DNA of 64,000 nt from Antedon mediterranea (taxonomy: Eukaryota > Animalia > Echinodermata). Every line of letters starts with the position of its first letter. The stretch's first letter is position 1. Where the stretch lies: NCBI RefSeq assembly GCF_964355755.1, contig NC_092673.1:32609648-32673647 (forward strand), in the 5' to 3' direction. Shown here piece by piece: positions 19,001-64,000 of the stretch. Both the position numbers and the translations under genes were made by a program. The notes under the pieces were generated by a model. That model ran no database searches. It saw nothing but the letters and a program-made list of their open reading frames with translations, and was not told the DNA's origin.

Positions 19001-20817
19001 CCAAGCTATAGGAACATACGTTGCGTCACCATCCATAATTTCAAGTGGCTGTCCATCGATTAACATTTCTGCAGCTATTTCCGGTAATTTCTCGATATCT
19101 CCTTTGTTCTCGATTTTCTCAATTGTTGACACTTCTGATGCCATCTCATATATTTGAGCACATTCTCTGATGACATGTTCTAAGCCAATACTTTCGTTAA
19201 AAAGTTTACTTTGAAAGTTTTTAACAAAGGATCTGTCATGTCCACGTTCGTTTTGATAAGCATTGTTGTATTCTTCTCGTATGTTTTGTAACCAGTCACC
19301 AGAGTACCTTTCTAACAGAGCACTTGTCCAGTTATAAAAGTATAACCTTTCGATAGAATCTGAAAAAGCAGACGCTATAAATTGTTTAACCATAACCATT
19401 TTAGATTTATTTTTCCATTGCTCCAACTGTGTCACTCGTAAACTGTTTAAATCTGATGAAAGCGTTTCGAGATCTTCCTCCCCTTGTATATCTTCATTTT
19501 GTTTTACCTGTAATAGTTCTCTACTTTTGGTAGCAATGTTTAATGATAGAAACTGCAATGGAAAATGCATAAGTTTTTCTTTATTTTCATGCAAGTTTTT
19601 CAGTAATTTTTTTGACTTCAACTTACAATCAGCGATGTTACCATTAGTTTTGTAATCGATTCGAATATTGGTCGAAATTGCGATATCTTCCAAATCCTCC
19701 AGATTTTTAGAACGGGTTGTTGGATTAGACAAACACTGTTTCAGTGCGTCTTCAAGCGATATGGATACATCTTTGGTTTCATCCCTGACAATTAGATGAA
19801 CCATTTTATTTGCACCGATAAAAGCTGAATTTATAGATGTAAGGAATGGTTTCCATTCATGATTTGGTTTTTTATCAAACACAAGAACAAGATGGCTTGG
19901 TTGGTCATTCCAAGATGTAATCAACTTCATCTCTTCCACGTCCGACATGTCACTTTGGCAGAAAAGAATACTTATTGATGATGTCTTCATTATGAACTCC
20001 TTTTGTACTGGGTGATTGTAAACATTACCACGTAGGTTCATCATCCCAAAAGCAGTTGAAAAGCTATCTCCATCATTTCCCATTGGAAGATACCACATTA
20101 TCTCTAGTACTCCATTGGCCATTACTTTTTTAACATTTCCACCCTTACTTTTATAATTTACAAAATGATTATGTTTCGAGTTAATGGCTTGATTGAGCAG
20201 CTCTGATTTTGATAGCGTAGGTCTTCCTACACGCAGAGCAGATACTATTGGTAATGGATACATTGCCAGTGATCGTTCACGAGATGGCTCTGAACAGGTC
20301 TTGCATAGCTTTCGTAGTGTACTCATTGCCCAAGAAAGCATTTCAATGTTGGGTGTTCTTGACGGGGCGTCTATACCTGGTAATATCAACGGAATGCCTA
20401 ACTGACACTGTGCCAACTTTTCTACCAATATTTGTCTGAGGAAGTCATCACTACATAAAAATAGTGACGTCAGTACGTCTAAGGGATGTACCTGTATTTC
20501 ATCATCTGTATCATCACCATTTGGCTCCAGGGAATCATCATCCAGAAAAAGAGACAGTGAGGTAGTACTCTTTACTGTGTGCGTTGGTCGATTAAGTTTG
20601 AACGACAATCCTTCGTAGTTGCATGCGATAATATTTTGTAGCATAAACCAAGGAAGTTGTCGCGGATGTTCGATATCTGAATGTTTAATAACATTTTCTG
20701 TAAGTTTCAGTGCTCTCTGTCTTGTAATTTTTTTTGGAAACAAGTCATGTAGTTCCAGTAATTTTAATAAACTACACTTTTCATAGTCAGGAAGAAGCGC
20801 CATTGTTTGATCATTAC
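16079..20817 (-). CDS. Very large inducible GTPase (GVIN1/URGCP-like), giant exon A
   Basis: 1606-aa ORF with G1 VLGVQASGKSTMLN, GRCTKG, G3 DTEG, HQN and a C-terminal CPFCEAPC..H...H Cys/His cluster. Probable phase-1 acceptor attatcatttcag| at 20817; the ORF portion upstream looks intronic. First internal Met is MALLPDYEK. Confidence 0.92.
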
Positions 20818-20997
20818 CTGAAATGATAATTTGTAATAATGCCCTGAAGTATTTTAGTTTATTTAGTTTGGTAGTACAGTAGTTATATTCTTTATTCATC
20901 GGGAAGAGTGAGAGAATAAGATATGAATAAATATTGTATTGTGCACATTTTTATTAGCTTTAATTGAATTTATATTTATATAGTGTTAAATTGTTTT

Positions 20998-22370
20998 TAG
21001 TCGCGTGGACGCGACTCTATAGTTCACAATGTCGGTCGGTCTGTTGGTCTGTCTGTCGGTCCGGTATCACTATGCGTTTTATCGCCTTTCTATATTTTTT
21101 GAACTGTTTTGATGTACAGACAATTAGTCGCGTGGGTGAACGCGACTCTATAGTTCACTATGTCGGTCGGTCTGTCTGTCGGTCCGGTATTGCTATGCGT
21201 TTTATCGCTTTTCTGTACTTTTTGAACTGTTTTGATGTAGAGACAATTAGTCGCGTGGGTGGACGCGACTCTATAGTTCACTATGTCTGTCGGTCTGTCG
21301 GTCTGTCTGTCGGTCCGGTATCACTATGCGTTTTATCGCTTTTCTATATTTTTTGAACTGTTTTGATGTACAGACAATTAGTCGCGTGGGTGAACGCGAC
21401 TCTATAGTTCACTATGTCGGTAGGTCTGTCGGTCTGTCTGTCGGTCCGGTATTACTATGCGTTTTATCGCTTTTCTGTACTTTTTGAACTGTTTTGATGT
21501 AGAGACAATTAGTCGCGTGGGTGGACGCGACTCTATAGTTCACTATGTCTGTCGGTCTGTCTGTCGGTCCGGTATCACTATGCGTTTTATCGCTTTTCTG
21601 TACTTTTTGAACTGTTTTGATGTACAGACAATTAGTCGCGTGGGTGGACGCGACTCAATAGTTCACTATGTCGGTCGGTCTGTCGGTCTGTCTGTCGGTC
21701 CGGTATCACTATGCGTTTTATCGCTTTTCTGTACTTTTTAAACTGTTTTAATGTACAGACAATTAGTCGCGTGGACGCGACTCTATAGTTCACTATGTCG
21801 GTCGGTCTGTCTGTCGGTCCGGTATTGCTATGCGTTTTATCGCTTTTCTGTACTTTTTTAACTGTTTTGATGTAGAGACAATTAGTCACGTGGGTGGACG
21901 CGACTCTATAGTTCACTATGTCTGTCGGTCTGTCGGTCTGTCTGTCGGTCCGGTATCACTATGCGTTTTATCGCTTTTCTGTACTTTTTGAACTGTTTTG
22001 ATGTACAGACAATTAGTCGCGTGGGTGGACGCGACTCAATAGTTCACTATGTCGGTCGGTCTGTCGGGCTGTCTGTCGGTCCGGTATCACTATGCGTTTT
22101 ATCGCTTTTCTGTACTTTTTAAATTGTTTTGATGTACAGACAATTAGTCGCGTGGACGCGACTCAATAGTTCACTATGTTGGTCGGTCTGTCGGTCTGTC
22201 GGTCCGGTATCACTATGCGTTTTATCGCTTTTCTGTACTTTTTTTAACTGTTTTGATGTACAGACAAGTTTTAACTATGTCGGTCGGTCTGTCGGTCGGT
22301 CGGTCGGTCTGTCGGGTATCACTTTGCGTTTTTCTGTACTTTTTGAACTGTTTTGATGTACAGAAAAGTT
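20998..22370. repeat. ~120-131-bp satellite, about 10 units
   Basis: tagtcgcgtgg unit starts near 20998, 21126, 21248, 21379, 21510, 21633, 21764, 21883, 22014, 22145. Confidence 0.95.
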
Positions 22371-31559: not shown

Positions 31560-33326
31560 TTAACCCAAAATACATACAATTTAACACAAATGTAAATTTT
31601 AAACGTATGGATAAGCCTATACAGCAATCACTACCAAAAGGTGTTTGATAACATCCTTTCCCGCGGTTTGATTTGATGGTGGCTGGGAGATACCGTACCC
31701 TTCTCCGGCACGCAGTGTACTCTTATGAAAGTTGTGGTTCACTGTTTTACCCATGGCGTATGTAACTAAATTAAAAAGTGATAGGTAAATGTAATTTGTT
31801 TTACTCTGGTTTTCTCTCTCTTATCCTTCCCACTTCCGTTAGCCTTTAACAAATTGTAACATGCCACCACCGTCTTTTCCCTCAACATTATTATCTTCTA
31901 TAGCGTTCTATTTATCGTCATGTTCAAATTTAGTTTCAGTGACTTGTTTATAACACAGCGGAAACCATCCCGATCATCATATTTGTTATATGTTACTCGT
32001 CAACTCATTTTTATTTGTTGTTTTCGTTTTTTTAATTTTTGCAGTCGGATTGTGTTTTCATCTTTTTAAAGGTTTATCTGTCATTTTTTTTTGCATTGTT
32101 CCCGTCGTCATAATTAACACTTTAAACCTGTTACTTTGTATTTATACTTTGTATTTATACAAATATAAATTTATAGTAATTTATTTATCTTCATCGTTTT
32201 TTTGTTCTACTTACTACTTACTGCTTCATACTAACACAATAAAGCACACACACAGAACGTGATTCTAATTCTAAAAGCACAATTTATTTTTAAAACCAAA
32301 TCACCAAACAAATTTACTTAGTTTATACGATTATTATTTATGAGTATATATTTTATATATTTTAAAATACTAAAGTAATAGGCTTATCCCTAATATATAT
32401 ATCACTAATATATCACTAATATATATTTATATATTTAAAATACTAAAGTAATAGGTTTACCACTAATTTGAGCATATGAGCATTACATGCAGTAACATTA
32501 ACATATCACCTAAACTACAATATTTCGATTAACTACGGTAGTTATATATTTATCATTAAAGCAAAGTTGAATATAGTAATTTACTGGCTGCTGTAATGAT
32601 AGACCAGAGGACAAGCAAAACAGCGACCTCTAGTCTAGGTTCTAGACGTACGGCAATTCGGCTTAATATATTGATAAAAAAGAAAACAATTTTGGCATAT
32701 ATGGCGTGCCATAACTATACTAGGTAAAAGAAACAAAACAAATTGCCCGCTGATGGCGCTACGTAAAATAACGAAACAATCAAGACTATAAGCGATCTCA
32801 CGCGGAAACAGTAATATAATGTAATATCATTATTGTTCATAAATTCTTCAATAAACTGGTAAAGCTTAACTAATTGCAAACATTTCTCAAAAATAGTTTA
32901 AAATTGTTACTTATTTTTCTCAAAATCATTTAAATTAATATTTCAAAACAGAGAATTAAACGTATAGGTCTACTACAAACTTGTAAACATTACACAACAC
33001 TACTAAATTAACACATTAAATGAAAAGAATAATTATTATACAATAATATAGGTAATCTACATTATATAGGTATACATTAACAATAAGAATACAATAGCAT
33101 AATGAAATGCAACTATATTAGCCTAAAACTATACAATATTACCATTACACCATTACAAACATATTAATTACGAAAATTATACGAAAAAACAACAAAATAA
33201 AATATATTTATGTTAATCAAAGGTAAAAACAAAATTTAAAAATATTTTGTTAATTCACCACGGCAAGTTAACTAATACTAATGATATACGAATTGATACA
33301 ATAAATGTGAATGGATAATTGCGAGT

Positions 33327-34385
33327 GGATACAACGTACGAGTGTGGATAATAGTAATATACGAGGGATACAACGTACGAGTGTGGATAATAGTAATATA
33401 CGACTGGATACAACGTACGAGTGTGGATAATAGTAATATACGAGGGATACAACGTACGAGTGTGGATAATAGTAATATACGACTGGATACAACGTACGAG
33501 TGTGGATAATAGTAATATACGAGGGATACAACGTACGAGTGTGGATAATAGTAATATACGAGGGATACAACGTACGAGTGTGGATAATAGTAATATACGA
33601 GGGATACAACGTACGAGTGTGGATAATAGTAATATACGACTGGATACAACGTACGAGTGTGGATAATAGTAATATACGAGGGATACAACGTACGAGTGTG
33701 GATAATAGTAATATACGAGGGATACAACGTACGAGTGTGGATAATAGTAATATACGAGGGATACAACGTACGAGTGTGGATAATAGTAATATACGACTGG
33801 ATACAACGTACGAGTGTGGATAATAGTAATATACGAGGGATACAACGTACGAGTGTGGATAATAGTAATATACGAGGGATACAACGTACGAGTGTGGATA
33901 ATAGTAATATACGAGGGATACAACGTACGAGTGTGGATAATAGTAATATACGAGGGATACAACGTACGAGTGTGGATAATAGTAATATACGAGGGATATA
34001 ACGTACGAGTGTGGATAATAGTAATATACGAGGGATATAACGTACGAGTGTGGATAATAGTAATATACGAGGGATACAACGTACGAGTGTGGATAATAGT
34101 AATATACGAGGGATACAACGTACGAGTGTGGATAATAGTAATATACGAGGGATACAACGTACGAGTGTGGATAATAGTAATATACGAGGGATATATAACG
34201 CACGAGTGTGGATAATAGTAATATACGAGGGATACAACGTACGAGTGTGGATAATAGTAATATACGAGGGATACAACGTACGAGTGTGGATAATAGTAAT
34301 ATACGAGGGATACAACGTACGAGTGTGGATAATAGTAATATACGAGGGATACAACGTACGAGTGTGGATAATAGTAATATACGAG
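33327..34385. repeat. 39-bp minisatellite, about 27 copies
   Basis: Unit gggatacaacgtacgagtgtggataatagtaatatacga with interspersed 40-bp ctggata variants. Confidence 0.97.
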
Positions 34386-34762
34386 TGATATAATAATGAT
34401 TATTACACAATTATATGTGAAACAATAATTTTGAAAATATTCTTCTATCTCAAGTTAAGGTAACTATTTCCTAATAAAGCAAATCTAACTCTAAATTTAC
34501 AATTTGTATTAAAAAAAATATTCATACATTCATTCATTAATTTATTCAATAATATGTAGGCCACTGGCCCAAGTACAATAATAGAAAATAATTAAAATAT
34601 ACATTACATTGAGTAGTGGTAACAGCAAAATAACTATTTTTTTTTTATATGCGAAAAGGGTTTACTAACTATAGACGATGTTTTAATGTTATATATAAGG
34701 CTAACATTACTTAATACCGCACAATTTGCACAGTAATATTATTGAAAACATTCATCACTGAA

Positions 34763-45711: not shown

Positions 45712-48700
45712 TTAAATATCGTACCATTTTCTCATATCTCTCTTCGCGTCTTCCATTGTAATAGAATTCCATCCGTCTGGGATATCAGCCTTGTTAGCAT
45801 GGTAGTATTCAGCAAGTTCAGTATTATATGTTGCCATGAACCATTTCCAGAACGTTTCTGCCTCGCCTGGAAGTGGTTCAATTTTCCATGATGCGTAGTA
45901 GTCATTGACAGTCCTATAATCTCGAAATTTAATAAATTTGAGGTTGGTGTGTTCATTCAAAAAAGGATAATTACACAATACTGAAGTTGTGCACACATCA
46001 GTAACGAGCTTTCCAGAAAAAGTATGCTTGTATCCAGCAATTCCTTGTGGCATGTGACACTCTGTACGATGGTGATCATGTGGGCCATGAAGTTCGCATA
46101 GTGCATTACAAAATGGACACACATTCTGACAAGCTAGTAGGTCAGCTGTAAAGAAGTCACAGAAGGATGTGCTTATGTCACTGAAAAGTCTACTATCGTA
46201 GGCGTTTATTATGGTTTCTTGGACGTTGTCTAGTTCCAATATTAATTTATCACTAAGTTCTTTCACATCCAGTTCTGTCTCTTCATCAAAAAACATCATA
46301 TCTGTTTTGACGCATAACTCTTTATCAATATATTCAAGTAAGATTGACCACCATAATTTCATTGTCATACTGTCACAGTAAATCATACCGCTTGCATTTA
46401 CATTAATGATAGCCTGCTTTAATCTAGCTAATATTTCACGAACTTTACAATTGTATATTTCTCGATGTACAGAGCTACCAGAATTGTCTTTTTCCTGAAA
46501 ACACATTTTCTCTATTTGTTCAGAGGTAAACGTTTTGATGGACTGAATTGGATTAGATAAATACTGCACAAAGGATTTAAAATCACCTTTCTCTGCCATT
46601 TCAACCAGCATCCATGCATGGAGAGACATCTTACTAGAAAACCCTTTACCCGAAGTGTATCTTAGATTGTCGATTACTCCAAGTTTGCATTTCTCTGGAA
46701 GCGATGTTTTAATAGCACTCGCAAACTCCCGAGATATAGCCGATACAACTTTTACAAGTATGTTCAGATCTTTACATTCTTCTTTGAACATTTGCCACAA
46801 TTTTTCTTTCTGAGACTCCATGTACAATCTCGGGTCACTTTCCTGTTTATATTGTTCTTGCATTTTTTCCAAGCTTGGTATTAATGTAACCTTGAAATTA
46901 GACACAGCTAGTCGAATATTTGATTTTTTATGAATGCAAACTTTCTCATCCATGTTTATTTCTCCAAGTTCACTTGACAGTGAGCTGAAAAGTTGAAATC
47001 CCAGTTGTTTTGTATAACTTCTTCCATTCTGTGCATGATTTAAAATTTTTGTTTGAAGTTTTTCCAGAATATCTTGTTTAGTGGAATTGGCCTGATTCAC
47101 ATACGTTACGTTACTTCTGGATCCAGGCTTTGATAAAAATGTCAAATCCTTTTCAAGTACTTCAGTACATTTGGAACAGTCAGACAACAATACACTAGTA
47201 ACTGTAAATTTGTCGTTTTCGGTATAGTAACCCTCAGTGATTCGTTCAAAAGATTTGTGTATGTTGACGTAATCATCAACACGTGGAATTACAGAAACCC
47301 ATTCATTCCAGTTTTTAGCAAACTCGCGTTCAAGAACTTCTTCAGAAAATTGTCGCTTTCGATACACTTCGGTAAGTTTCTTAGCTTTTTGGTAAATCGT
47401 TTGTTCATGCATTTTAATGGTGGCATCAATTTCAGCTCTGCCAATTATTCTGTTTTTAATAGATGTATATACATCCCTCAGGTCTCTTTTAATTTCATTA
47501 CAAAGATCGTCGAGTTGAAGTTCCATTTTACATTTCCATTGGCATGCTTTTTTTTCTTTTTCAAAATAAGACGCCATGCTTGATTGGAAAGTCAGAATGT
47601 CTTTCTCTAATTTCATTAAGTAATCATCAAGGATTTGTTCCTCTTTAACCTTTTCAGCTGTTAGTTTTTTACATTCATTTTGAAGTCCGTAGCTGTATTC
47701 TAGTGCATTTCTTCTGAAAGTACGGGCATGCTTCACATATTCTACATTCAAAGCATTAAAAGCTTGAATCTCAAGAGAATTTTTGAAACTGAATACAAAA
47801 TCTTGACCTAATATTGCTTTCCAAAGATCAGACAGCAATATTGTGAACTCATCGATATGTTTAGGTTCTGAATTCTTCATAATTTCCAAGACTTGTTTCT
47901 TTACTTGAAGAATGCATTTGCTGTAACCGGGATTAGGGGGCGCCATCGGTGGATCTCCTTGCCAAAGGCCGGAAATGTACATTATATGTTTGTTTTCTTG
48001 AAAATGAATGACATCAGAAAACGATTTATATTTCTCACCGCAATTTTCAGCTTCAGCTGCGATTTGTGTGATGTTATCCAATATTTCTCGCATGCTTCGT
48101 TTTTGCACCGTATTCAAGTCAGATGCTGTAACATCGTTGACATTTTGGTGTACAAATAAGCAGCTGGGCTTGATATGATGAACATTTTCCATTTTCATAA
48201 AAGCGTGCACAGCAATTTGAAGTGTGTCTTGTATGTCCGTTGAATTTTCTCCCATAATGTTTATTATGGTAAGATCACCCATACCAATCACAAACGTGGC
48301 TAATTCATTGTCCCGATTATTAGTATGTTGAATTCCGGATTCAGAAGATCGCAAACCCTCAGTGTCTACCACTAGGATGTAATCACACTTTGTGTCTTCT
48401 CCTAAACCTGTATCTAAAGATACTAGCTGGGCAAAAATACCTTTCGTACATCTGCCGGCGCTAACGGAAAATTGTAAACCAAACATGGCATTCAACAAAG
48501 TTGATTTTCCACTACTTTGAATACCTAGTACAGATAACACAAACATCTTTTTATTGCCAATTTGGTATGCAAGAGATTTGAGCACGGCTCTAATCCAAGC
48601 GATAGGCACATGGACTGCATCACCGTCCATCAGCTCAATTGGATATCCATGTAGTAACATTTCAGCAGCAACTTCTGCTAAGTGGAAATTATCAAAGTCA

Positions 48701-50432
48701 AGTTTTGGTGATTTAAAATCTGGTAAAAATTCGTAATTTTGACCAATTTCTCTATTGAAATGTTCTAATCCCACTGATGCAGAAGACAGTTGTTGTTCGA
48801 GTTCATCAAGTTGATATTTCAAGGTTTCTAATTGCTCATTAGTCGTTTCTGGTGCTTTTTTTTGGTCACATAACTCATTCCACTTGCAGATGTACTCGTC
48901 ACGTATTGGTTGTAGCTTGTCGATGCTATATTGGTCAGTCATTATCTTCACAAAACCAAAGAAATATTTTCTTTTTATAAGTGTGTTTGAGAAGGAGGTT
49001 CTGAATATTTGATATGCACAAACGTTTAGTCTTTGTTTGTTAATTTCTAACTGTTGCTGACGTAGGCATGCCATCTCTTTTTGTAGTTTATCAACGTATT
49101 CTTGAATTTGCATGTTTCCCTTTCTTTCTAGACGATGTTGTTCTCTTTTTGTCTCTGCAATTTTTAGTGTTATCTTCTGCAAAGGTAGCTCGTTTGCTTT
49201 TCCTTTTAATTTAACAAACTCTAACAATTCCTTAGCACTCTGTTTTGCTTCTGAACAATCACTTTCCATTTCATCAACGTGATAATTCACTGTATGCGCT
49301 AATTCAATGCACTCTTCAATACTCCTATCAGATACAACATCCCGATGGTCTCCTTTAAAATTTCTTCCAAGCGATTTCCAAATATCTTTGCTTATTGTCA
49401 GCTCGTTCTTGCCTGTTGATATAATATATTGTACTTGTTTCTTTACATTCTTTATACTTGTTTCCATTGTATGAAGTGCCTTCCCTAAATCTTTCAAAGC
49501 ACGTTTATCTAAGATGAAAATCACGTGGCCATTTTGCATGTAAAATGATTCAAGTAACTTGGTGTCATACTCCTTAAAATCATCAGCTGCCACGAATACA
49601 ATAGACACCAGTGATATCTCAGATAGAAACTGTGCCTGCTTTTGGAAATCTGATGCATTCCCTCGCAAATTTATAAATGTGAGTGCATCTGCAAAAGCAT
49701 CCGTACGTTCCTGTATGGGAAGGTACCATGCCATTTCTAATAAGCCATCTGATAATTTTCGTACCAAATTTCCACCTTTGCACCCGTAGTGAAAAAAAAT
49801 ATCATGATTCTGCCCAATAATGACATAGTTAGCAACTTTAGATTTGGATATTTTAGGTTTACCTAGTCGCAAAGCAGAAACAATCGGTAACCTCTCTACC
49901 ACCATTGATCGTTCACACGACAAACCTGAAATCGTTTGCCATTTCTTTGTGATTGTGCTCATTCCCCACACAATCATTTCCCATTCTTTGTCCTCTACGT
50001 CTGTTACTGGAATTAGTAAAGGAATAGCTAATTGACATATCGACAATTTTTCGATCACAATTTGCCTTAAAAAGTTGTCACAACATAAGAAAGTAACTAC
50101 CAGTGCATCTATTGGACTAACTTTACTGTTTTCAGTACTGTGATTTATTGATTCTTCACTTTCTTCTAGTGCAGAAGAAAGTGAATAAGCATTTTCATGA
50201 GAAGATTGACTTTCTTCTAAATCAAAACACCTTCCTTCGTAGTTACACATAATAAGATTTTGCAGCATGTACCAAGGTATTTTGCTTGGATCATCATTGA
50301 GTTCATCTGGTAAATTTACATTTTTAGAAACTAAAAATAATACCTCACGTGTTAGTTTTCTGGGAAAATATTTCTGTAGTCCTAGATGTTTAACTATCTG
50401 CTTGTACATTCCAAATGTACTGTCCGTCTTAT
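45712..50432 (-). CDS. Very large inducible GTPase (GVIN1/URGCP-like), giant exon B
   Basis: 1589-aa ORF with VLGIQSSGKSTLLN, GRCTKG, DTEG, HQN and CPFCNALC..H...HH...H; phase-1 acceptor tatattttctttag| at 50432. Confidence 0.93.
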
Positions 50433-51224
50433 CTAAAGAAAATATACAATACAAATGTAAATAAAGAAACAAAAGTTTCAAATTTGAGTATAATAATAGT
50501 CGTTATCTCGGGACTGTTCTATGGCCACCACCAGGTAGGCTTACTTCATGAACGCTTCTATGAATGGATGAATATTTGGGAGCAGGAACGATAGTAGACC
50601 AAACCCAGTACCGTTTTTTATTACGATCATGTGGGAAATTACCTAACGACATTATATCTCTAAGATAGTTTAACAGTTCTTTAATTCCACCATTAATTCT
50701 GATAATCTTTCAATCTCCATAATCTCCGTATTTATAACAAATTACCCGATGGAAATGAAAAAAAATTAATTTTTAACTTTTCAAGTAAGGGTCTGTTTCT
50801 GCTAAAAAAATTAAAATAATTTCCTAAGTACCACAAACCATAGAATTGACCGCGTTGCAACTGAAAATTTTATCCGACGTTAATCGGTTATCTGGTAATC
50901 GCTTATCTGGTAATCGCTTTTTAAAAAGCACGTCATCCATACCCACAACACAGTTATGGAAGGCCGATGAGAGTCGGTTTGTTTACATTCTATCGCTGCC
51001 TAAATCTCTCACATGTAGGATTAAAAATTAAAAATTTAACTCTTACGTAAAGCTATATTATTTATAAAATAAACATCTAGGCCTACTACCGTACCACATA
51101 CGACAGAAAAATGATGTTAATAAGGGCACGTCGGCAAGAAAAGTTCGTTTCGCCATTGGTTCTAATCTAGGACCTAGCTAGTTTCTACCGAAACAACAGG
51201 CCTAAAAAGGACATGCAAAATATC

Positions 51225-51269
51225 GTTAGCCTGGACTTGTGGGATGTGTGTGTGTGGGTGTGTGTGTGT

Positions 51270-51301
<32 letters not shown>

Positions 51302-51678
51302 CTGTGAACATCCTGGAGGCCACAGTTTTAAAAACTAACAAAAAAATATTTTAATGCCTAGAGACCACAGTTTTTATCCGATTCTCACCAAACTTAGCCA
51401 CAATGATCAATGACTCATCATATAATTGTGGTTAAATTTTGACGGGTCAGGGTCAAAGATCAAGGTCCACAAAAAAAAAAAAAATGTAATAAAAAAAAAA
51501 ACCTCGGCGGGAATTGAACCAGCGATATCAACTGTGAGATGCTGGATGCAGTTCGCCTATTTACACTTAGAGCTAATAAAAAATAAATAAAACAAAATAT
51601 ATATATTTTCCGGGGACATTTTATGTAGGGGAATTTTACAGTAGGCGGAGGTTTGTACTCTCGGAGTACTCTCTAGTT
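51225..51678 (+). mobile_element. Helentron/DINE-like element with a (GT)n tract
   Basis: GT microsatellite 51246-51300; 3' end aggcggaggtttgtactctcggagtactctctagtt with hairpin; inverted related end at ~57720-57790. Confidence 0.55.
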
Positions 51679-52130
51679 ATTATATATTACAATATTGGAT
51701 AAGATCAGACGTCATACTCTGACAACTGTCATCTGTCTTTCCAGTATAGTATTATATATTATTCATATTGCATATCACAAATATCGGATATGAGCAGTAG
51801 TCATAATGGCAACTGACCACGCATCTCTTAATATATTATATCTTCAATATTATTAATACTATTCTATATCAGAACATCGGGTTTAATCAGCATGCAGTCA
51901 TAATTTGAGTATATACAAACGATCATAACAATTGGTATAATCCCACACAGCACCAATACCATAATTAAAAGTAAAATAGATTATGGCAGGAAATAGTGCA
52001 CCTACCATCGTTGCATTTTTAATTGGTATAGCATCACATGAATGCAATAACTAACACTAGATAAACAATAAAAAAGGGTCTTCTAAATCTAAAACTCACT
52101 ACAATATTTAACATAACGTCACTATCTTAC

Positions 52131-55100
52131 CTTGTATTACAACTTGTTCTGATGATCCCTGTTTCTTTTCAGTATCGGTTTTTGCTTGGTTTAATTCATC
52201 TGTTTAATAAAAAAAAAAGTAGATAATTAGGGAGGTTTCACAACCTTACGAATACGATAACGAAAACGGATACGTCATACATTTGTGAAACTTTTGAGCT
52301 GATCCCCATTTCATATTCGTAAAGCGTATTCGTGTTGACGAATATCACCAGTCATATTCGTAACTACAAAACGAGTATAGTTTTTGATCTATTTTGCACA
52401 TTTTGCATTTGAATCAGGAATGATTCATGATTATAATAAAATTATAGATTTATTGAAAGTAATTTACTAAAGTAATTTACTAAAATGCCAAGTCAATTTT
52501 GATAAATAGCAGTTTTTAAAGTCCTCACTCGCTTTGATGTTACGCTATGCCTAGGCAGCAAAGCACCAAGCAACACGTACCTGCGCTTCGCTAAAATTTA
52601 CCGCAGTCATATTTTGGACGCGCCTCAATATTTCGTTGCCATGCGAAACAGATTTTTTTATGGCTTACAAAAACGAATACGTGTGCGTGGCGTATCAGTT
52701 TTCGTTATCGTATTCGTAAGATTGCGAAACCGCTCTAATGTTAAATAATGGAATCAAAATATATGATGATTGTTAAATATAGAACATAGTTGTCAACATA
52801 ATTGTAACTGGAAGCGAGAGTACATTGTATTTAATGTCGGTATATTCCAAACCTCTTCTTCATTTTTTAGGTATTTTGGCCGGCATAATTGGTCGGTAAT
52901 ATTTTACTTTAACCCCAGTTAGATGTATTGTTATTAGATTTATTAATAATACTTGTTTAAAATTTGTATATACATTTGTATGCAATTTTATATAATATTT
53001 AATTAAATGGCACAAAATAATTATAAATTGCTTAGCAAACCGTTTGTTCACAAAAGTATCTCACCTGTTTCTGTTACAACCTGTTCGGGTGATTCTTGTT
53101 CCTTTTCACATGGGATTTCCAACTCCTCAGTATCTGTTTTTGCTTGGTTTAATTCATCTTTTTAATAAAACAAGAGATAACATTTTTAAATATCGATCAT
53201 CTAGTTATATTTATTGTTGTAAGATTATCATTAATTTCTAATTAGTTTTAAAATAACAGTTAATTGTATTTTATTAAAACAATCTCACCAACAGACCCTT
53301 CGTGTATCATATTTTACATACTAAAATCTGCAGTATACTAACTAACGCATTGACTCACCTGTTTCTGTTACAGCCTTCTGGGGTGATTCTTGTTCCTTTT
53401 CACACGTGGTTGCCACCACTTCAGTATTTTCGTTGAATTCGTCTGTTTAATAAAATCATTATATACAATGTTTATTAGATAAATTGTTTAGACATTTAGC
53501 CAAACATGAGTAACCATAACTTGTTACAAAATCCACCTGAATATTTAAATTCTCACCTGTATAAAGGTATATTTAACAAGACCGTTGTTGTTCGGCGTAA
53601 CAACGAAACATGTATGCACAAATGTTTTTTTTTAATCAAACTGAAGTTTAATGTTGTTATGCTGTCGGAAGTTCGACAACATTATTCATCACCTTAAACA
53701 CTTCGGTGTCAATCAAGGACTTACGAAAGTCGCAAAAGCTCTCAAAACAAATCCGTAAAAGCAACAGCTGATAAACTACTTATAAAATTGTAAAACGTTC
53801 GGCTTATTTACAAAATGTATTAATATTATTATTGTTGTTAAAATACTTGGTTCGAATGTTCTTATCATTAATTTCTATGTAGTTTATGATAATATTCTAT
53901 TGAATGTATTTTAGCAATACAATTACATTGAATGGCACATAATTATTATACATTTCTCAGCAGACCGTTTGTGAATTTCATATCTCACAATCTAACTGCA
54001 GTAACTCACCTGTTTCTGTTACAACCTGTTGGGGTGATTCTTGTTCCTTTTCACATGTTTTTTCCAACTCCTCAGTATCGGGTTTTGGTTTGTTTATTTC
54101 ATCTGTTTATACCAAGAGATAAAATGTTTAGATATTGCCTAACTGTGTAGCCGGCCAGCAAATCAATTAGATTTATTTTTACAAAATTTATAAAAAAAAA
54201 ATACTTGGTTCAAAATATGTCATATCAATTTCTATGTAGGTTTATTAAAATATTTAATTGTATCTTAGTAATACAATTACATTGAATGGCACTTAATAAT
54301 TATTATAAATTGTTTAGCAGACTGTTTGCGTGTCATATTTCACAAACTAATTGCAGTAACTCACCTGTTTCTGTTACAACCTGTTGGGGTGATTCTTGTT
54401 CCTTTTCACATGTGAACTCACCATTATCTGGTTTAAGTTGGTTGAATTCATCTGTTTAATAAAAACAATACAATTTTAACTCTTCACGGTGACGAGTTAT
54501 TAGGCTATCGCGCAACGCATGTAACACATGCTATGTATTAGGCTTAGTCTACAGTGGGCGTAAACGGTTTAGTTGACGGTTAGTTTTTATTTTACACCGC
54601 TATAAAAAAAATTTTCATATGTCTGAAGCAGAATTGTTTGAGTAATAACATATTGAAAATTGATAACGTTTACGTGATATGCGTTCTATTAAATGTGACG
54701 AACTGTCCCAAATATGTTTGATTCCACTTTTATTTATTCTTTGATTTCTATTTGAACTTTATATACTGTTTTATGCCTGTTTTAAATGTTTTTATATTTG
54801 TAAGTATCATGTAATTCAGCCATTGGCTGCGATTTTGATATGCAATAAAATGAAATGAAATGAAATGAAAAGAAAGATAAAAATCCAATTTTAAAATTCA
54901 GATGGCCATATGATGACGTTATAACATTACGGTCTAAATTTTACATAAACTAATATCTACAACTCATTAGCTTTTATATTAAGTTAAACAATAGAGAGAG
55001 AGCTATAATCGATTCAAAATAGGCATATTTATTTTTACACAAATTTGCATGAAATTATCCATTTTCAGGCGCACGATTTTTAAAGTTTGACGTACACGTG

Positions 55101-58100
55101 TGTCATTATTTTACATTCACAATATATCATAAAAGTATAAAGAACAATCAAGTACAAAAATTATCTTTCTAAGCTAAGTACGAGCTAAGTGCGCAAAAGC
55201 TCGCGCGCAACGCGATTTTTTTTAATGTGAAATAAAAAATATCCTGAAACATTTTGAAAAAATCTCCAATCTTCAAACTGTTGCTGATGATACAAAAAGA
55301 TGATTGGGATTAATGTATTTAATTTTATAAATAACTTCACTTTAGTGTATGTAGTCCTAATGTATTATATTAGATTTTTTTTTTTTATTAAATAATGTTT
55401 TTGATCACATTTACTGCCGTCATCTTGTTGTTCCTGTTGGAATCACTTTTCAGTCTGTAGTACGCCCTCTAGCCTTCGGCTTATTACACCTCTCTGGCAC
55501 AGGCGTCTATTAGTGCGTACTGCGTAGGGCGTATCTGATTGGTCGATTATCGTGTTGGTTCCTTCTCCATAAAAAATAACTTTTTGATCTTTTGCGATCT
55601 AGCCTTTGGCTTTAAAATATTTGGAATTTATATTCAATTGATTAAGAATTTCGCGAAAATCGCGCGTAGTTACGCTACGCGACCATATTTTCATTAAACC
55701 AAAGTCAATTTTTTGACAATAAAAATCAATTAAACATTTGCCAAACCCCCAAAATTATAATTGCTTAGCAGACTGTTTGCGTGTCGTATTTCAAAAAAAC
55801 TAAGTCACCTGTTTCTGTTACAACCTGTTGAGGTGATTTTTGTTCATTTTCACATGTGGTTGCAACCACCTTCTCAGTATCTGGTTTTGCGTCAAGGGTT
55901 AATTCATCTGTTTAATAAAAATGATATAAAAATGTTTAGATATTTATCAAAGTCCTCCCGTTAGATTTATTGTTATTATATAGATTTATTAAAACATATT
56001 TGGTTCGAAATGTCATATTAACTTCTGTGTAGTTCCATTAATTGTATTTTGATAATAAAATTACATTAAATGGCAAATAATAATTGTAAATGCTCAGCAG
56101 ACCGTTTGTGTATCATATCTCACATACTAATATTGCAGTAACTCACCTATTTCTGTTACAACCTGTTGAGGTGATTCTTGTTCCTTTTCACATATGATTG
56201 CCAACTCACCATTATCTGGTTTTGTGTCAGGGTTTAATTCATCTGTTTAATAACAACAATAGATAAAATGTTTAGATATTGGCCAAACCTGTGTATCTAT
56301 AAGGTAGGTTCGATTAATTAAAAATGGTTGGTTCGAAATCTCAGTTCAATTTCTAATTAATTTAATGATAAAATTTAATTGCATTTTAGTTAAACAATCT
56401 CAGCAGACCGGTTCGTGTATCATATTTTACATACTAACTGCCCCAGTATACTAACTAACTGCAGTAACTCACCTGTTTCTGTTACATCCTGTTTGGTTGA
56501 TTCTTGTTCCTCTTTACATGTGGTTTCCAACTCCTTAGTATCTGGTATTAAATATAATAAAAACAAGAGATACTTTAATTTTTAATAAATAAAAGAATTA
56601 CAAAAAATTAAATAATATATTTGCTAAACCTGTGCAACCATGGGATCTGCTTGAATGTTTTTTGTCGTTATCTGATTTTACTTCCTTTAATTCATCTGTT
56701 TAATATATTAAACAAGAGATATATTTAAACATTGGCCAAAACTATGCATCCATGAGGTCCTCCAGTTAGATTTATTGTTATTAGGTTATTAGTTTTGAAT
56801 GTTCATATAATTAATTTCTATGTAGTTAAGCCTATATAATAATATCTTAATAAATTAAATGGCTCATATTAATAAATTGCTCTGCAGACCGTTCGTGCAT
56901 CATATTTTACTTACTAATTGCAGTAACTCACCTGTTGCTGCTACAATCTGTTGGGGTGATTCTTGTTCCTTTTCACATGTGATTGCGAACTCCTCAGTAT
57001 CTGGTTTGGCTTGGTTTGATTCATCTGTTTAATATAATATAAGAAGAGATAAAAATGTTTAATATATAGATATTAAATAGATATAAATATTTGGCAAACA
57101 TGTGTAGCCATAGGGTCTGCCAGAATATCTATTGCCATTACCTGCTGATGAACAAGTAATGTTCGAATTTTTCTTAGTAGTTATGTATCCCATTACGGTA
57201 AGTATTTTACCTTTCATCAGTACAGTAAATGTAATTTACATCTAATGTGGTGCTATATAAAACTCCATCATTATCATTTTAATTCTGAATTAGACGGACA
57301 AAATGCAAATATTAAAAAAAAAATAACCGTCTCATATACTATACTAGCTGTCTCAGTAATTTCGCGAATTGGTTTGATAACATTATAGTATAACCCGACC
57401 AAATTATTTCAATCGATTCAGTAAATTTATTTACTTTAATCGGTTGCAAAACATGTTTTGTTCTTGTTTGTTTGTCATTAATTGTTAAATTTCAATTATT
57501 TTCTTATAAATATAATAGTATTATTTATGTACAATTGAAAAGGGCAGATTTGAAATTGAAAAGGGCAGATATGAAATTGAAAAGGGCAGATATGCCTCTT
57601 CCTGGACACCATCGGAATCACGACTCTGTCGTCTTTGTAACACCGGTGAGGTTGAAGATGAGCTTCACTTTCTATGAAATTGTAGTCATTATGACAACAT
57701 ACGTAAGAAACTATATAATAACAAGAAAGCCACTCTGAGAGTGCATACCTCCGCCTACTGTAAAATTCTCCTACATAAGATTTCTCCGGTGCGGGAATAT
57801 ATATATATCTGTGTGTCTAATGCTGTGTTTGATTTAGGCTAATTTCACTACAAGCATGTGTATGCGAATTTAGTGTACTGGTTATGTAACCAGCCTTTCA
57901 ACTAACAATAGTGTCAGTTGACTAACAATAGAACAGCAACGCCAAAAACAAGTCTGTTAACGTTTAGTATTTATTCGGATTGTGACGTCAGATATAACGT
58001 ACATGCGGTACGTTAATTAGTTAGGTGTGGCAGGGCTAGTTACATCATCATGTTTTGGATCGGTACAACTCCACTACAATTGACATAACTGCAGTAACTC

Positions 58101-58180
58101 ACCTGTTTCTGTTACAACCTGTTCGGATGATTCTTGCTCCTTTTTATATGTGGTTTCCATCTCTTCAGTATCCGGTTTTG
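52131..58180 (-). CDS. Array of duplicated micro-exons forming the N-terminal extension of VLIG B: 58103-58180, 56932-57024, (56630-56695), 56473-56541, 56147-56242, 55809-55907, 54365-54451, 54010-54102, 53359-53442, 53065-53157, 52131-52199
   Basis: Each is AG|...|GT bounded (mostly aaacag| and |gtgagt); lengths 78, 93, 66, 69, 96, 99, 87, 93, 84, 93, 69; all stop-free in phase 1. Consensus DELNQAKPDTEELETTCEKEQESPQQVVTET. The last joins 50432 in frame (VVIQ-DKTDS). Start exon not found. Confidence 0.82.
52230..52735. mobile_element. Harbinger-like MITE
   Basis: ~45-bp imperfect TIR ggtttcacaaccttacgaatacgataacgaaaac / gttttcgttatcgtattcgtaagattgcgaaacc with TTA/TAA flanks. Confidence 0.75.
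54470..55755 (-). mobile_element. Relative of the 34763 Helentron-like family, in a micro-exon intron (right end approximate)
   Basis: Similar terminal hairpin taactcttca-cgg-tgacgagtta; shared internal block tggccatatgat (54903 and 35195). Confidence 0.5.
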
Positions 58181-58280
58181 CTTAATAAAGGAATAGATGG
58201 GTTATCCAGTTAGACAGATTTATTTTCAAAAGAACAAGGTTCGAATTTGTTTGACCATTATCAGTTTATGACATTTTTAA

Positions 58281-59551
58281 AGGCCAATTTACATACAGGA
58301 GCGGTAACGGTAAGCGGTAAAGGTAAGCGGAAAATACAAAAATAGAATCTATGTTATTTCTTATGACCATTTACACAGAACGCGGAGAGGACGAGCGGTT
58401 GAGCGGAAATCCGCTCAGGATAGAAACAGATTCAATTTTGTAAAAATAACGCGCAGTAATTATGGATTCTGGCCAACCAACGACATGATTGATATGACGT
58501 CATCTATCAACAACTTTTTTGCTTGAGTCCGTCGAGTCAAAGACGACAATAAATACGAGTGCCGTAGTAGGCTTAAGGCCAATTTACACAGACGAGCGGT
58601 AACGGTAAGCGGTAATTGTAAGCGAAAAACCGCGTGGCTTTTTCCATTTACACAGCGCGCGGAGTTCACGAACAGAGTTGTGGAAAGTAGGTGCGTGTAG
58701 GCGGCCTCGAGGCTAATGCATGTTACAGTCACTGCTGGCCTGGATGTGACTGACTGTCAGTAGGCCTAGCACACACAGGCCTAAGTTTTAGAGGGAATTG
58801 TTGCCTAATAACGTACTAAAATGTATATTTTCTTTTCACTATCCTTATACGAACATTAGTCACGTCGTAGGTGTTTTTATTTCTGAATAAAAAGAAGAAG
58901 AAACTATAGGCTATAGGCCTACTAACGGCACTCGTATTTATTGTCGTCTTTCACTCGACGGACGCAAACAAAAATTGTTGATAGATGACGTCATTTCAAT
59001 CATGTCGCTGGTTGGCAAGAATCCATAATTACCGCGCGGTATTTTCACAAAATCGAATCTGTTTCGATCCTGAGCGGATTTCCGCTCAACCGCTCGTCCA
59101 CTCCGCGTTCTGTGTAAATGGTCTTAAGAAATAACATAGATTCTATTTTTGCGTTTTCCGCTCAACTTTACCGCTTACCGTTACCGCTCGTCTGTATAAA
59201 TTGGCCTTTAGCCTAGTTTTGGAACTTCTTATTATTCCGAAATACAAACAAACGACGACGACAAACTAGGACGTGACTGATTGTTTGTATAAGGATAGTG
59301 AAAAGAAAGTATACATTTAGGACGTTATTAGGCCCTCTAAAACCTAGGCCTGTGTGAGCTAGGCCTACTGCCAGTCAGTCACGTCCAGACCAGCAGTGAC
59401 TGTAACATGCATTAGCCTCGAGGCCTACAAGCACCTACTGTCCACCACGGGCCACTCGCGAATTCCGCACGCAGTGTAAATGGGACAAGCCACGCGGTTT
59501 TCCGCTGACAATTACCGCTTACCGTTACCGCTCGTCTATGTAAATTGGCCT
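58281..59551. mobile_element. Harbinger-like MITE containing an inverted copy of itself (58576-59207)
   Basis: Four TIRs of type AGGCCAATTTACAC..GAGCGGTAACGGTAAGCGGT; inner copy flanked by TTA/TTA, outer by TAA/TTA. Confidence 0.85.
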
Positions 59552-60385
59552 TTAGGAAAATTTTACTAGACAAATTAGTTGTATTTCCTTATACTAAATT
59601 CAAAAGCCTATTTAAAATTACAAGGAAATCGCATATTTCTACTGGTCTAATTCCATCTTCATTTTATATTCAATAACCTAATAAGATGTATACGATAGGA
59701 CAGGTTAACTCAAGATAATACACATGATGTGGTGTGACTATGATTTGAATCGAGAAAAATATTATTATTTATTTGCGAAATATTATTTTGAAGGAATACA
59801 CTACTCTTGTGTAAACAAAATAATATTTCGAGGGAACAAAATTATATTTTGATGGCAAACAACAATATTTCAAGGGAATGAAATACAAGTTTGAGGGAAC
59901 TAAATACTGGAACGATATAGTATTTTGCGGGAGCAAAATAATTATTATTTCATAATAAAGAAATAATATTTCGGGGAAAGAAATATGGCCATGTCCCTTT
60001 TTACATTAGCGTGTATATAAAAAGGTCAAAAAAGGATGTGTACTGTTTTGAGAATAGCTATTTGTATATTGAAGAGAATGCCTATCTTTGTTGTAACTAC
60101 TATTAAGAGAGAATCGATGCAAATGTGATTATGACTTCTAACGATTTCTGGTTTTATAAAAAAAAATTCAACTAGACAGCCATTGGCTCATATTGTACAT
60201 GACAACACGCATGCGCAGTGTGAAATAAATGTATTTATATGTTTAAATATTTATTAAATGACACACCCATGTATATCTAAGCATTGTGAGTGTGATTGAT
60301 GAAGAAAATCTACTCTCAGTCACATTCTCCATCAAGAGTATTTTGCCCCACCGTTATTTCGAGCTAATCTAACACATTTTCTTAA

Positions 60386-62020
60386 AGGGGGATTCTGGGT
60401 TTAAAATTGCTTTTAAATATCGTTTATTTATTAAATAAAAAACATTATAACAATATAGACATGTCAGAATGAAGAAGTAATAACGAGAAATTAAAAAAAT
60501 TAAATTTCATATACATTTTAGGGTAAATTCATGGAAAGTCTGTTTTTCAGCAGCTTAGGGAAGCTCATTAATATTCATGAGATATTCACAAAATCACGTC
60601 ATCAGTGGATTCCAAACTCGCGACGTCAAGCTTGTACGTTATGTTCTCTCTCCTCTGTCAAACGATGACCACCCGATCATTGTGAAATACATTTTTTTGT
60701 AGATTTGCTAAGCTAGGCCTAAAGTGTAATAATAACAGTAGTAGCATATATTTATTTGACATTTAATGAAATACAAAATTTAGTACAGATTACGGAGTCA
60801 TAAATTATACTATTTTTATACCTCGAATTAATAGTACAGATCGTATATCGGCTTCACGTACTAGTAGGCTAGGCCTAGCCTAAATCATTTTATTCATGCC
60901 GGGGTGAGAGCCATTTCTGACTAGGGATTCGATGCCACGATGGCTACGTTAAAACATTGCATTGGGGCCATCATTCATGGGCCTAGCTAGCCTATTACTA
61001 AACGATTGGCCCATAAATAACAAAACTCAGTGGATTCCAAACCCATCCTATCAAAACCAAACTCCTAAACAATCTAGGCCTAAACCTAAAACGTTCTACA
61101 AAAATCGGCTGTAAATATTGAGGCAAAACAAGGTCCGATCGCCGTCCGCACGTCTAATAAGTAGGCCTAGTTAGTTTACTCTCCAAAAAAGCGGATACTG
61201 CATCAAGCAAGTAGACCGGTAGTAGGAAGGAGACCTAGCTAGCCTAGCCTAGCCGATCCGGCCCAGTTAAAAATTGAGCTAGCTAGTGTAGTAGACCCTA
61301 TGCGAATTGATACTACCAGGCCTTTTACTATAGGCTACACTTGTTAAAATTAGCAATACTGTACTTATGTTTACAAATATTCCAACTCTCTCATTCGAGC
61401 TATATTATCTATACCATTCCGGTAGGTTGAGTCGACCTTCAATCAAATACTGTACATCGTTGTTCATGTTGTGATATAGACGGGGTATACTCGACCCGAC
61501 CAGTTTGGTATTGTATACTGTATCTGCTTATCACGTGACGATGCCAGGCATGGGCAGAGAGAGCACGTGTATCGTCGTCTCGCTCTCCTCGCTCAGCAGG
61601 TGGTGCAGGATTGTATACGTTACGCTTCATTGATTTTGAAGGCTTTCCCTAAGTCAGTGCGAAAATCGGCAAACGTAAAGTGCAAACTTATCTAATTTTT
61701 CACTGTTTTGATGGATTTTCATAGAAAATTGATTTTATAAATGGGAAGACCGACTAAAATTACATAAGATAAGTATAATTTTACAAAAGTAATTGATATG
61801 GTTAATGATAACGAGTCGTCGGAAGATTGACCATTTCACGAATTTCGTATTCTGTAACCACAGTGTGATTTTGCCGTAGCTGCACTTGTAATCTGGCCTC
61901 ATTTCACAGCCTTCGTAATGCTTCACTGGACGCTTATATAAATTGAAACTTTTACCGTTCAAGAGACAAACAAATATATTTTACATTTTTTACTATTCAT
62001 TTTAAACCCGGAACCCCCCT
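60386..62020 (-). mobile_element. 1.6-kb Kolobok-like transposon, copy 2 (inverted)
   Basis: Reverse complement of 12011-13623 with TTAA on both sides; the ORF track shows matching peptides at 12069 and 61962. Confidence 0.88.
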
Positions 62021-64000
62021 TTAAGTGTTTTAACATAATTTATGGTGTTATACTTTCAGTCTAGATACTACCAACATAATCTTCGCACATTTGAAATCGA
62101 TATTCTACCTAACTTATTATAACTGTATGTCTACATTATCAAAATTGCCTACTGCGTTTTAAAAAGTATGTATGCAAACAGAAGTTTAATGAATATACGA
62201 ACCTTTAATTTTTGTCCGAACTTACACAACTACAAAAGTACGTCATGTTGTCTGAGCGAAACGTATCGCAATGTGACGGTTCGTTATTGTTCGTTTAATT
62301 TTGGGAAATTCTAACTTTGCAGCAATTGGTTAATACAACAAAAGGGTATTTTTTAATAATTTGCATAACCATTTATTGTACTGTCCTACGTAACATGCAC
62401 TTTATGTTTCAATGGCAACCAAAAAAAAAATGTTTTCATGACATGAATGTAATCGATAGTATTATTCTACAGTCATTTTCCTGAATTCTTAAATATTGAT
62501 TGTATAACCTATAATTTAGATTATTATACAAAATACTAGTGATTAGTGTTAAACATCTCAAGAAACATACGTTGTTCTTTATAATAATATAAAATATGAT
62601 AATTATAGTGCAAATTAGTGAAAAATAAATAATTTCATTATGATAATTATTATTCCTACTCTTCCGAAAGGTACACGTGTATACTGGACATCCAGTTTTA
62701 ACTTCCTTGTCCGAGAAGACTTTGTAACTAGAACCAATACAATGAGAGCCTTGTGGCTATGGTTTGCGCTGCCCTTGATTTAACTGCTATACTAGTAATT
62801 TAAAGTCTTAATCGCATTCTTTTTATATCTTTCAAACTGGCATTCATTTTTTGTGTACTTTACTGGAAAAGTATAATGTATACAGAAAAGAATTAAACAT
62901 AGGAATGTATGTATTTCTCTGCCTGCGACTGCAATCATAATTATCTAATTATAGGAAAGGCTTTTCAAAACAGCAGTGTTTTCATGTAAGGCCTACGTAT
63001 GTATGTACACACAATACGTGCTCTTATTGGACGTATTTAATATATTAAGCCATGATATTACTTTATATAAAGGAATGCGTAAATGCTATGTTGGAAAACC
63101 ATAATCAACACAAGAGTGTGTAACTATATCGATACACGACCTAAACTAGGTCTTCTTAGTGTTTTTTAGGCTTAGATAACAATTTCTTTAAACTTCCGAG
63201 AATATTTAAGGTTTTTCTGGATTCATTATTCCAGTAACTTCCACAGAAAATATAAAATAAAAATCCCACTAAAAATTTGGATTTGGCGGTTTTTGGTTTC
63301 TATATCAAGCACAATTTGAACTTTAACATTATAGATAAATTTGATATTACTTTTGTTTCACCATCCATTTGGTGAGAAAGTACCATCATGGATTAAAAGT
63401 TCTTTGTAACCTGCAGCAGCATGCATCTGCTACACATCGATTGTAACAAAACTGTGGATGGAGATGCAAAAAAACAAAACAATGCCATTGATCAATACCG
63501 AACTCCAGGTAGAATATAGATCACCTTCCAAATACTGATAACAACAAAGTTATTGATTTTAATGTTCGATTCTTCTCGGAAACATTAACCTAACAAATGT
63601 CGTGAGTTTCAAAACAACATTTTGAACAACAACTTATTATCAATAAATATTGATTTGTCCGCGAAAAAAATTGTTTTACTAAACGATAATAACAAAAGTT
63701 AAACACTTTTTTATCTAGGAGTTTAGTTTTGAAAAAAATGAAGAAATTAAAAGTAATACAGGCTGCTAACTAAAATATTAAACTCGTCAAAATATAGGCT
63801 TACAAAAACGTAGGAAATATACAACATTTTCAAAACAAAACTCTCAAACTTTGGAGTGGTTTTAGGAAAACTACCCCCTGATTATTATTATTACAGGTAT
63901 TATTTAAAGCTAATCTTGAGTTCCGTCGAACTATACATTAACAACGATTTATAGGAAAAGAGGCAAAAGATTTATACTGCGGATAAATTTTGTTGTCGCT

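Follow-up and report, generated by a model that had tools for sequence, protein, structure and literature searches.

Described systems and the crinoid locus

The closest described relatives of the locus are the VLIG/GVIN GTPases, a class of 200-285 kDa proteins (PMC8286824) that have lately been shown to coat intracellular bacteria (10.1101/2025.03.24.645074). Human GVIN1 is described as intronless, with a predicted N-terminal domain, an unstructured linker and two LG domains, and its immune induction, GTP hydrolysis and coating of intracellular bacteria have been shown (10.1101/2025.03.24.645074). One list of transcripts (PMC4519954) gives a Gvin1-like transcript of a sea cucumber as decreased following Vibrio challenge. 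The Antedon mediterranea gene shares with VLIG/GVIN1/URGCP proteins both Pfam domains, the P-loop and DTEG motifs, a predicted GBP/atlastin/RNF112/Sey1p-like fold and a core contained in one giant exon, but it differs in its N-terminal part, a multi-exon acidic repeat whose only other instance, among the annotated proteins searched, is a single diverged copy in a closely related paralog.

Runs of short exons are found in several other systems. The PEVK exons of titin are short and symmetric and carry one repeat each. Together (exons 112-225) they encode a charged low-complexity spacer whose length is set by exon inclusion (PMC11040099). Titin PEVK is the closest working analogy, a charged spacer from an exon run, but there is no homology, more than 100 exons stand against 11, differential splicing has been shown for titin, and the array is no mechanical spring. 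Schistosome micro-exon genes, to which a preliminary description had likened the locus, have exons of 6-36 bp that make up ~80% of the coding region and encode secreted or membrane-anchored products (PMC5825161). The likeness is that brief symmetric exons follow one another and that skipping them would leave the frame unbroken (11/11 are symmetric in the array), but the comparison fails on size and share, with array exons of 66-99 nt that encode 309 of ~1,880 residues (~16% of the coding region); moreover, the array exons all descend from a single unit, as paralogs, and belong to a GTPase predicted to be cytosolic. Dscam resembles the locus in being an invertebrate gene with tandemly duplicated paralogous exons, and its array exons encode parts of folded domains under purifying selection. 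Those arrays are mutually exclusive (PMC1397879), whereas the units described here would be additive (seven stand in series in the RefSeq model), are disordered in composition and give no sign of amino-acid constraint (pN/pS 1.00).

In the window, the whole 64-kb stretch of DNA that was analysed, 11 paralogous exon+intron units lie on the minus strand 5' of a 4.7-kb VLIG/URGCP GTPase exon (slashes mark splice junctions):

58103..58180, minus strand: E1, 78 nt; has lost its original acceptor to a deletion and relies on a cryptic in-frame TAAG; donor CAG/GTGAGT
57200..58080, unstranded: repeats and sequence foreign to the unit, within the E1-E2 intron
56932..57024, minus strand: E2, 93 nt; intact unit
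56630..56695, minus strand: E3, 66 nt; 5' third of an exon, joined to sequence of intron origin; its donor GTTTAG is weak; probably a pseudo-exon
56473..56541, minus strand: E4, 69 nt; has lost its original acceptor to a deletion and relies on a cryptic in-frame CCAG; donor CAG/GTGAGT
56147..56242, minus strand: E5, 96 nt; intact; earliest array exon within RefSeq XP_071948937.1
55809..55907, minus strand: E6, 99 nt; intact; weaker donor GTGACT
54480..55720, unstranded: repeat-derived inserts in the E6-E7 intron
54365..54451, minus strand: E7, 87 nt; intact
54010..54102, minus strand: E8, 93 nt; intact
53470..53830, unstranded: insert in the E8-E9 intron
53359..53442, minus strand: E9, 84 nt; intact
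53065..53157, minus strand: E10, 93 nt; intact
52226..52739, unstranded: MITE-like inverted-repeat insert with 52-nt arms in the E10-E11 intron, ~25 nt 5' of the E11 acceptor; very high read depth
52131..52199, minus strand: E11, 69 nt; intact unit, the most divergent of the array; has a donor of its own, AAG/GTAAGA; downstream intron non-homologous
45712..50432, minus strand: big VLIG/URGCP exon, 4721 nt; acceptor ctttag/AT, phase 1; URGCP and URGCP_GTPase domains

Duplicated units and the GTPase exon

The array exons sum to 927 nt (309 aa), and all 11 are multiples of three with phase 1-1; the phase-1 frame is free of stops in 11/11, and each other frame contains stops in 11/11. The preliminary description had counted 10-11 such exons in units of exon plus intron, both of which hold, with the refinement that 8 of the 11 units keep both original splice sites, those of E1, E3 and E4 having suffered loss by deletion. 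Damage in 3/11 units counts against a coding spacer. Donors are mostly strong (GTGAGT at 7/11 array exons), and of the nine minus-strand occurrences of AG/GTGAG in the 64 kb, eight are at array exons. The introns are homologous (pooled identity 0.807; 10 pairs, 5 insert-free introns), units without inserts span 285-349 bp, and the paralogy of 10 copies is beyond chance (nhmmer E 7e-26 to 2e-9), with no further exon copy in the 64-kb window below E 3.5 (nhmmer). The motif previously quoted for the flanking introns corresponds to the donor plus a motif 30-60 nt behind it, read in reverse complement. Units differ from each other by 10-32%, on which ground an assembly artefact was rejected, and maximum identity is 90%; since no pair lies above this value, there has been no recent copying or copy-number turnover. 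Contigs of a single sample (X2, X3 and X5; possibly from the assembled animal) span 56457-56977 with 3 differing letters and 0 gaps, and argue against misassembly only.

The assignment of the big exon to the VLIG family was confirmed far above cut-off, with 244.8 bits for PF25496 URGCP (cut-off 27) and 401.5 bits for PF25683 URGCP_GTPase (cut-off 55). G1 (GxxxxGKS) is present as the P-loop GIQSSGKS at about 48525-48502 and G3 (DxxG) as DTEG at about 48366-48355, and the predicted fold (pLDDT 68.8, pTM 0.55) had its best Foldseek matches in RNF112, GBP1/2, atlastin and Sey1p (E 3e-8 to 3e-5). The array phase matches the acceptor at 50432 (G/AT giving Asp, then KTDSTFG), and the gene's RefSeq model XP_071948937.1 joins seven array exons, E5-E11, to the big exon. 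The protein would comprise ~1,880 aa if every unit were included; the RefSeq model has 1793 aa, and a start at an internal Met gives 1565 aa, the last falling below the 200-285 kDa class; the core is a single giant exon.

The first in-frame ATG of the big exon lies at 50409 in fair context and gives the 1565-aa form, and six paralog models (P0002, P0003, P0005, P0006, P0009, P0013) start near its equivalent. Paralog models read KMEDTF where the array gene has KTDSTF, as if a nearby start Met were unneeded. The RefSeq start at 56423 looks forced; it sits inside the repeated intron motif and uses a GC donor. A search of 58181-64000 for a start exon gave seven weak ATG-to-donor candidates, all of them lacking a good donor, and the N-terminal parts of five paralog models had no match below E 1.5 in 50001-64000. 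The internal ATG with the matching paralog starts, the forced look of the RefSeq start and the lack of a start exon weigh against the coding reading. Four sequencing runs, X1 (guessed to be RNA, share 0.06) among them, covered mainly repeats and introns, with 0 exon-exon joints among the 15 joints listed, and are uninformative on expression.

Frame, residues and a putative spacer

Under null tests that assume a star tree and one consensus, with copies that are partly non-independent (the tree groups E4+E9 and E5+E7), stops were found in 0/10 exons against 3.3-3.9 expected in neutral simulation (P 0.015 and 0.008), their absence had an analytic P of 0.005-0.018 (63 distinct variants), and, with failures counted too, the probability of at least 8/11 intact units was 0.008. 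Codons one step from a stop make up 149 of 277. The ~6 independent exonic indels, counted by eye from the exon alignment, are all multiples of three, as compared with 34 of 107 pairwise gaps in introns, which by simple arithmetic gives 0.32^6 ~ 0.001 for whole-codon indels by chance. Frame keeping thus appears to exceed chance moderately, in agreement with the earlier claim that exon lengths differ by whole codons under selection on the frame. The companion argument, that transposable elements sit only in introns, stands as to location, all visible inserts being intronic, and was dropped as a sign of frame selection (chance P 0.15-0.28 for 4-6 inserts).

The suggested comparison of exon dN/dS with intron divergence gave a pN/pS of 1.00 among exons and an exon identity of 0.847, slightly above the intron value, with variants spread evenly over codon positions (25/19/19). 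Neither positive nor purifying selection on residues was seen from pN/pS and codon positions, at the low power afforded by ~30 codons. This ratio and this even spread resemble non-coding or decaying sequence. Unless positive and purifying selection cancel each other, a pN/pS of 1.00 would suggest that the units vary length and charge and are not selected specificities. The array peptide is acidic (pI 4.05) and has no hydrophobic stretch; a charge-hydropathy plot places it with disordered sequences and the core with ordered ones. The acidic N-terminus proposed earlier is borne out, if the exons are spliced. Among 888 candidates of 218-2000 aa the repeat peptide was found in the gene's own model alone, and there was no match among 7995 candidates of 30-985 aa or among 1.84 billion representatives, nor a usable Atlas match.

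On a modest balance of probability, we read the array as a coding, length-flexible spacer that arose by tandem exon duplication and is probably spliced onto the VLIG/URGCP GTPase. One ancestral 5' coding exon of the VLIG clade would have been multiplied by unequal crossing-over in blocks of one or two units, giving an N-terminal spacer, acidic and predicted to be disordered, that may reach ~300 residues and keeps its frame as its residues drift. Stops or frameshifts that arise in included exons would cut the GTPase short and be purged, and copy gain or splice-site loss, as in E1, E3 and E4, would be harmless because each exon is symmetric. Most intact exons would be included most of the time. 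The resulting polyacidic flexible tail or linker, at a position matching the predicted unstructured linker that separates the N-terminal domain of human GVIN1 from its first GTPase domain, might control spacing or solubility, or hold back the assembly of oligomers or coats by charge-based autoinhibition.

Paralogs, rival readings and meaning

The VLIG expansion is lineage-specific (11 Antedon models), and in relatives the same core is preceded by N-terminal parts that are kinase, DED-like, CARD-like or SAM-like, or simply long; in these automated models, several of the assignments being below cut-off, the phase-1 acceptor looks like a candidate plug-in site. The paralog XP_071948942.1, which shares a clade with the array gene (SH-aLRT 95, quick tree), contains one homologous unit in the same frame and with the same donor read-through (7-12 identities over 21-29 residues). 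As this sister VLIG carries both unit and donor, the unit predates the array. It lies 3' of a truncated VLIG core there, not 5', and we infer that it is linked to the next VLIG.

It is possible, though unlikely, that the array serves cassette diversification, with exons used in many splice combinations or varying in number among haplotypes to produce an isoform ladder for immune recognition or for escape from pathogen antagonists. Symmetric phase permits skipping, weak sites at E1, E3, E4 and E6 invite partial inclusion, and the RefSeq model uses a second in-frame donor of E8, 21 nt downstream, that adds GELLQLD. The gene also stands within the lineage-specific expansion, differential use of a GVIN1 first exon accompanies disease resistance in trout (PMC8321248), and a pN/pS of 1 could mask positive selection at some sites. 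However, symmetry is the necessary outcome of surviving single-exon duplication and no sign of skipping, 7/11 donors have the GTGAGT form, recent copy-number turnover is lacking, and an acidic segment that is disordered, cytosolic and free to drift in its residues would make a poor specificity element. No description of splicing-based diversification of VLIGs was found in the literature searched. We hold just as tentatively that the array is a tunable tether of the titin PEVK type, in which 11 symmetric cassettes in many splice combinations, their number varying among VLIG paralogs and haplotypes, would adjust the length and charge of an acidic arm and yield a ladder of coat-forming isoforms.

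Somewhat more doubtful still is a relic, a once-coding array that is now decaying or 5' untranslated, with the GTPase starting at ATG 50409 or the whole gene 5'-truncated. The neutral pN/pS, the damaged units, the lack of a start exon in the window and the paralog-sized protein from the internal Met would all fit, but units keeping both splice sites have no stops or frameshifts, and the 4.7-kb exon has stayed intact. Both of these would also agree with a function lost only recently. That the exons are part of a different transcript, from a small gene nested here or lying upstream, and match the VLIG acceptor in phase by chance (1 in 3), is very improbable: the unit does lie 3' of the VLIG core in XP_071948942.1, and automated models in the VLIG cluster fuse unrelated-looking parts, but neither a terminal exon nor a further gene was found to separate E11 from the big exon (tblastn of 37 proteins had no other match in the window), another VLIG model of that clade has the unit too, and the repeat was found in no other protein searched.

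Read as a coding spacer, the locus would be a young plug-in built from one exon, with selection acting on the frame and not on the residues, and a clear natural example of how a linker can lengthen through exon duplication, set in an invertebrate cluster of immune genes that has expanded. Should the spacer be constant, this would be a modest novelty of gene structure in one species; if its splicing is variable, it would be a new diversification route for a cell-autonomous defence protein.

The GTPase exons and their family

The window has the composition of AT-rich animal DNA and carries two giant open reading frames:

45712-50502, minus strand: giant ORF (VLIG/URGCP), URGCP and URGCP_GTPase domains above cut-off
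16079-20950, minus strand: second giant ORF (VLIG/URGCP), single-exon, 1623 aa from stop to stop, URGCP and URGCP_GTPase domains above cut-off

The first belongs to the VLIG/URGCP family, as the preliminary description had proposed, with domains, motifs, and predicted fold in agreement. For residues 1-1143 of its big exon, AlphaFold2 (pLDDT 68.8, pTM 0.55) predicts a fold matching GBP, atlastin, RNF112, and Sey1p GTPases. Antedon VLIG models accounted for 11 of the 37 protein matches, including the gene's own, and 10 of these 11 lie on a single 36.2-Mb contig. A quick tree groups all 11 as one clade (SH-aLRT 100), making the array-bearing gene part of a lineage-specific expansion. The second ORF shares only ~41% core identity with the first and sits on a long branch outside this expansion; no array unit was found upstream of it, and a tandem array of ~131 bp x 9.9 copies (21005-22267) lies immediately upstream. 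Elsewhere in the window are another tandem array (33322-34390, 39 bp x 27 copies, 97% match, all three minus frames open), a low-copy stretch resembling a short terminal exon (~63260-63420, plus strand), and a 211-aa ORF (10277-10912, plus strand) with 33-nt repeats at 10502-10628 and no Pfam match, which may resemble the C-terminus of GORAB.

Structure and evolution of the exon array

Eleven units were located from 58180 to 52131, and the paralogous, stop-free phase-1 exons of 66-99 nt described earlier were re-derived (E1-E11: 78, 93, 66, 69, 96, 99, 87, 93, 84, 93, and 69 nt; total 927). The phase-1 frame is open and the other two closed in 11/11, and it continues into the big exon's acceptor at 50432. 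Since the introns are mutually homologous, the duplicated unit is indeed exon plus intron, 285-349 bp long without inserts. The array is only partly intact, however: all 11 units are in frame, but both original splice sites are retained in just eight (E2, E5-E11). E1 and E4 lost their original acceptor by deletion, the first AG past the pyrimidine run being in frame. E3 lost its 3' two-thirds and donor, and a weak GTTTAG is all it has. Units are 68-90% identical, with no additional copies within the 64-kb window. E4 pairs with E9 and E5 with E7 (SH-aLRT 87 and 92) in an otherwise unresolved tree, a pattern that fits duplication of a two-unit block. A conserved intronic motif 30-60 nt behind each donor (e.g. 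56423-56405, minus strand) could be a splicing element or mere shared descent.

The sequences point to selection of moderate strength for keeping the frame, in line with the preliminary description. With E3 excluded from these counts because its end is non-homologous, 63 distinct substitutions in 10 exons created no stop (3.9-5.1 expected, P 0.005-0.018), and a stop-free array was rare under forward simulation (P 0.015 and 0.008). Roughly six exonic indel events, counted by eye, were all whole-codon. Gaps in multiples of 3 made up 35/45 in pairwise exon alignments, the remainder necessarily compensating as net exon lengths are all multiples of 3, and 34/107 in introns (pairwise, with non-independent pairs). 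At the exonic indel rate, at least 8/11 intact units, the three damaged ones counted as failures, had P 0.008. Confinement of transposable elements to introns, previously read as further evidence, was dropped because chance suffices (P 0.15-0.28).

Residue-level selection left no sign in pooled comparisons (pS 0.173, pN 0.173; ratio 1.00, or 0.98 on distinct variants). The three codon positions took 25, 19, and 19 variants, and identity was 0.847 in exons vs 0.807 in introns. The peptide is acidic, as first noted: in the RefSeq protein, the 213 residues from the array have a pI of 4.05, with 59 acidic and 18 basic among them. Charge and hydropathy place this part, unlike the core, on the disordered side of the dividing line. 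On sequence grounds, a kept frame, free residues, and tolerated splice-site loss are the pattern of a symmetric-exon spacer.

Proposed connection to the GTPase and competing explanations

The feature is real, and automated annotation already includes part of it: the RefSeq model (XP_071948937.1) splices E5-E11 onto the big exon. Its start at 56423 lies inside the repeated intron motif, one copy of which serves as the model's first exon and has a GC donor, and its E8 donor is displaced by 21 nt; the model may thus be largely a prediction rather than independent proof. XP_071948942.1, from the nearest clade, ends in a homologous unit with the same donor read-through behind a truncated core; in a tandem cluster this unit probably belongs to the following VLIG as its 5' exon. 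Low identity to the window units (7-12 identities over 21-29 residues) implies that the unit predates the array. In the end region of that protein (residues ~1105-1177), the array-like unit and read-through follow another acidic segment, which contains a Met, has TET as its last residues, and may be the start-exon type missing from the window; no homolog of it was found in 50001-64000. Two observations stand against a link: 58181-64000 yielded no start exon whose donor was good, and translation from the in-frame ATG at 50409 would produce a protein of 1565 aa, resembling the paralogs. In sequencing runs aligned to the window, none of them catalogued as RNA, no splice joint appeared among the rows listed, a result silent on expression. 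Nested short inverted-repeat elements of one family, with very high read depth and many joints, lie just upstream of E1 (58280-59540) and may have separated the 5' exon from the array.

It seems somewhat probable that the intact exons are spliced serially onto the GTPase, where they would act as an acidic flexible spacer. Functional cassette diversification, as initially suggested, is permitted by exon symmetry, but any surviving single-exon duplication requires such symmetry anyway; with GTGAGT donors in 7/11 exons and no recent unit copying, it is unlikely. A decaying or untranslated relic is less likely still, and exons of an unrelated transcript are very improbable.

Comparison with known systems

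The proposed likeness to micro-exon genes fails, as the array gene falls outside their definition in PMC5825161. Variable first-exon use is already reported for trout GVIN1, but there it concerns one single 670-aa exon (PMC8321248). No repeated-exon N-terminus of a VLIG appeared among the papers listed, drawn from a literature with few subscription journals. Database searches found the repeat peptide in no other protein, weak evidence given a short, low-complexity query and the fact that the same searches missed the unit in XP_071948942.1.

Other VLIG relatives carry a kinase part (above cut-off) or DED, CARD, or SAM parts (below cut-off) before the same core. Six protein models (P0010, P0016, P0029, P0019, P0011, P0026) differ in this way, with a kinase, weak DED, CARD, or SAM matches, or long N-terminal regions. 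Differing N-termini suggest a modular plug-in site, although these automated models are possibly misjoined. A serially spliced spacer would occupy the position of the unstructured linker predicted for human GVIN1 (10.1101/2025.03.24.645074), and a working array would most resemble, by analogy, the PEVK region of titin (PMC11040099).
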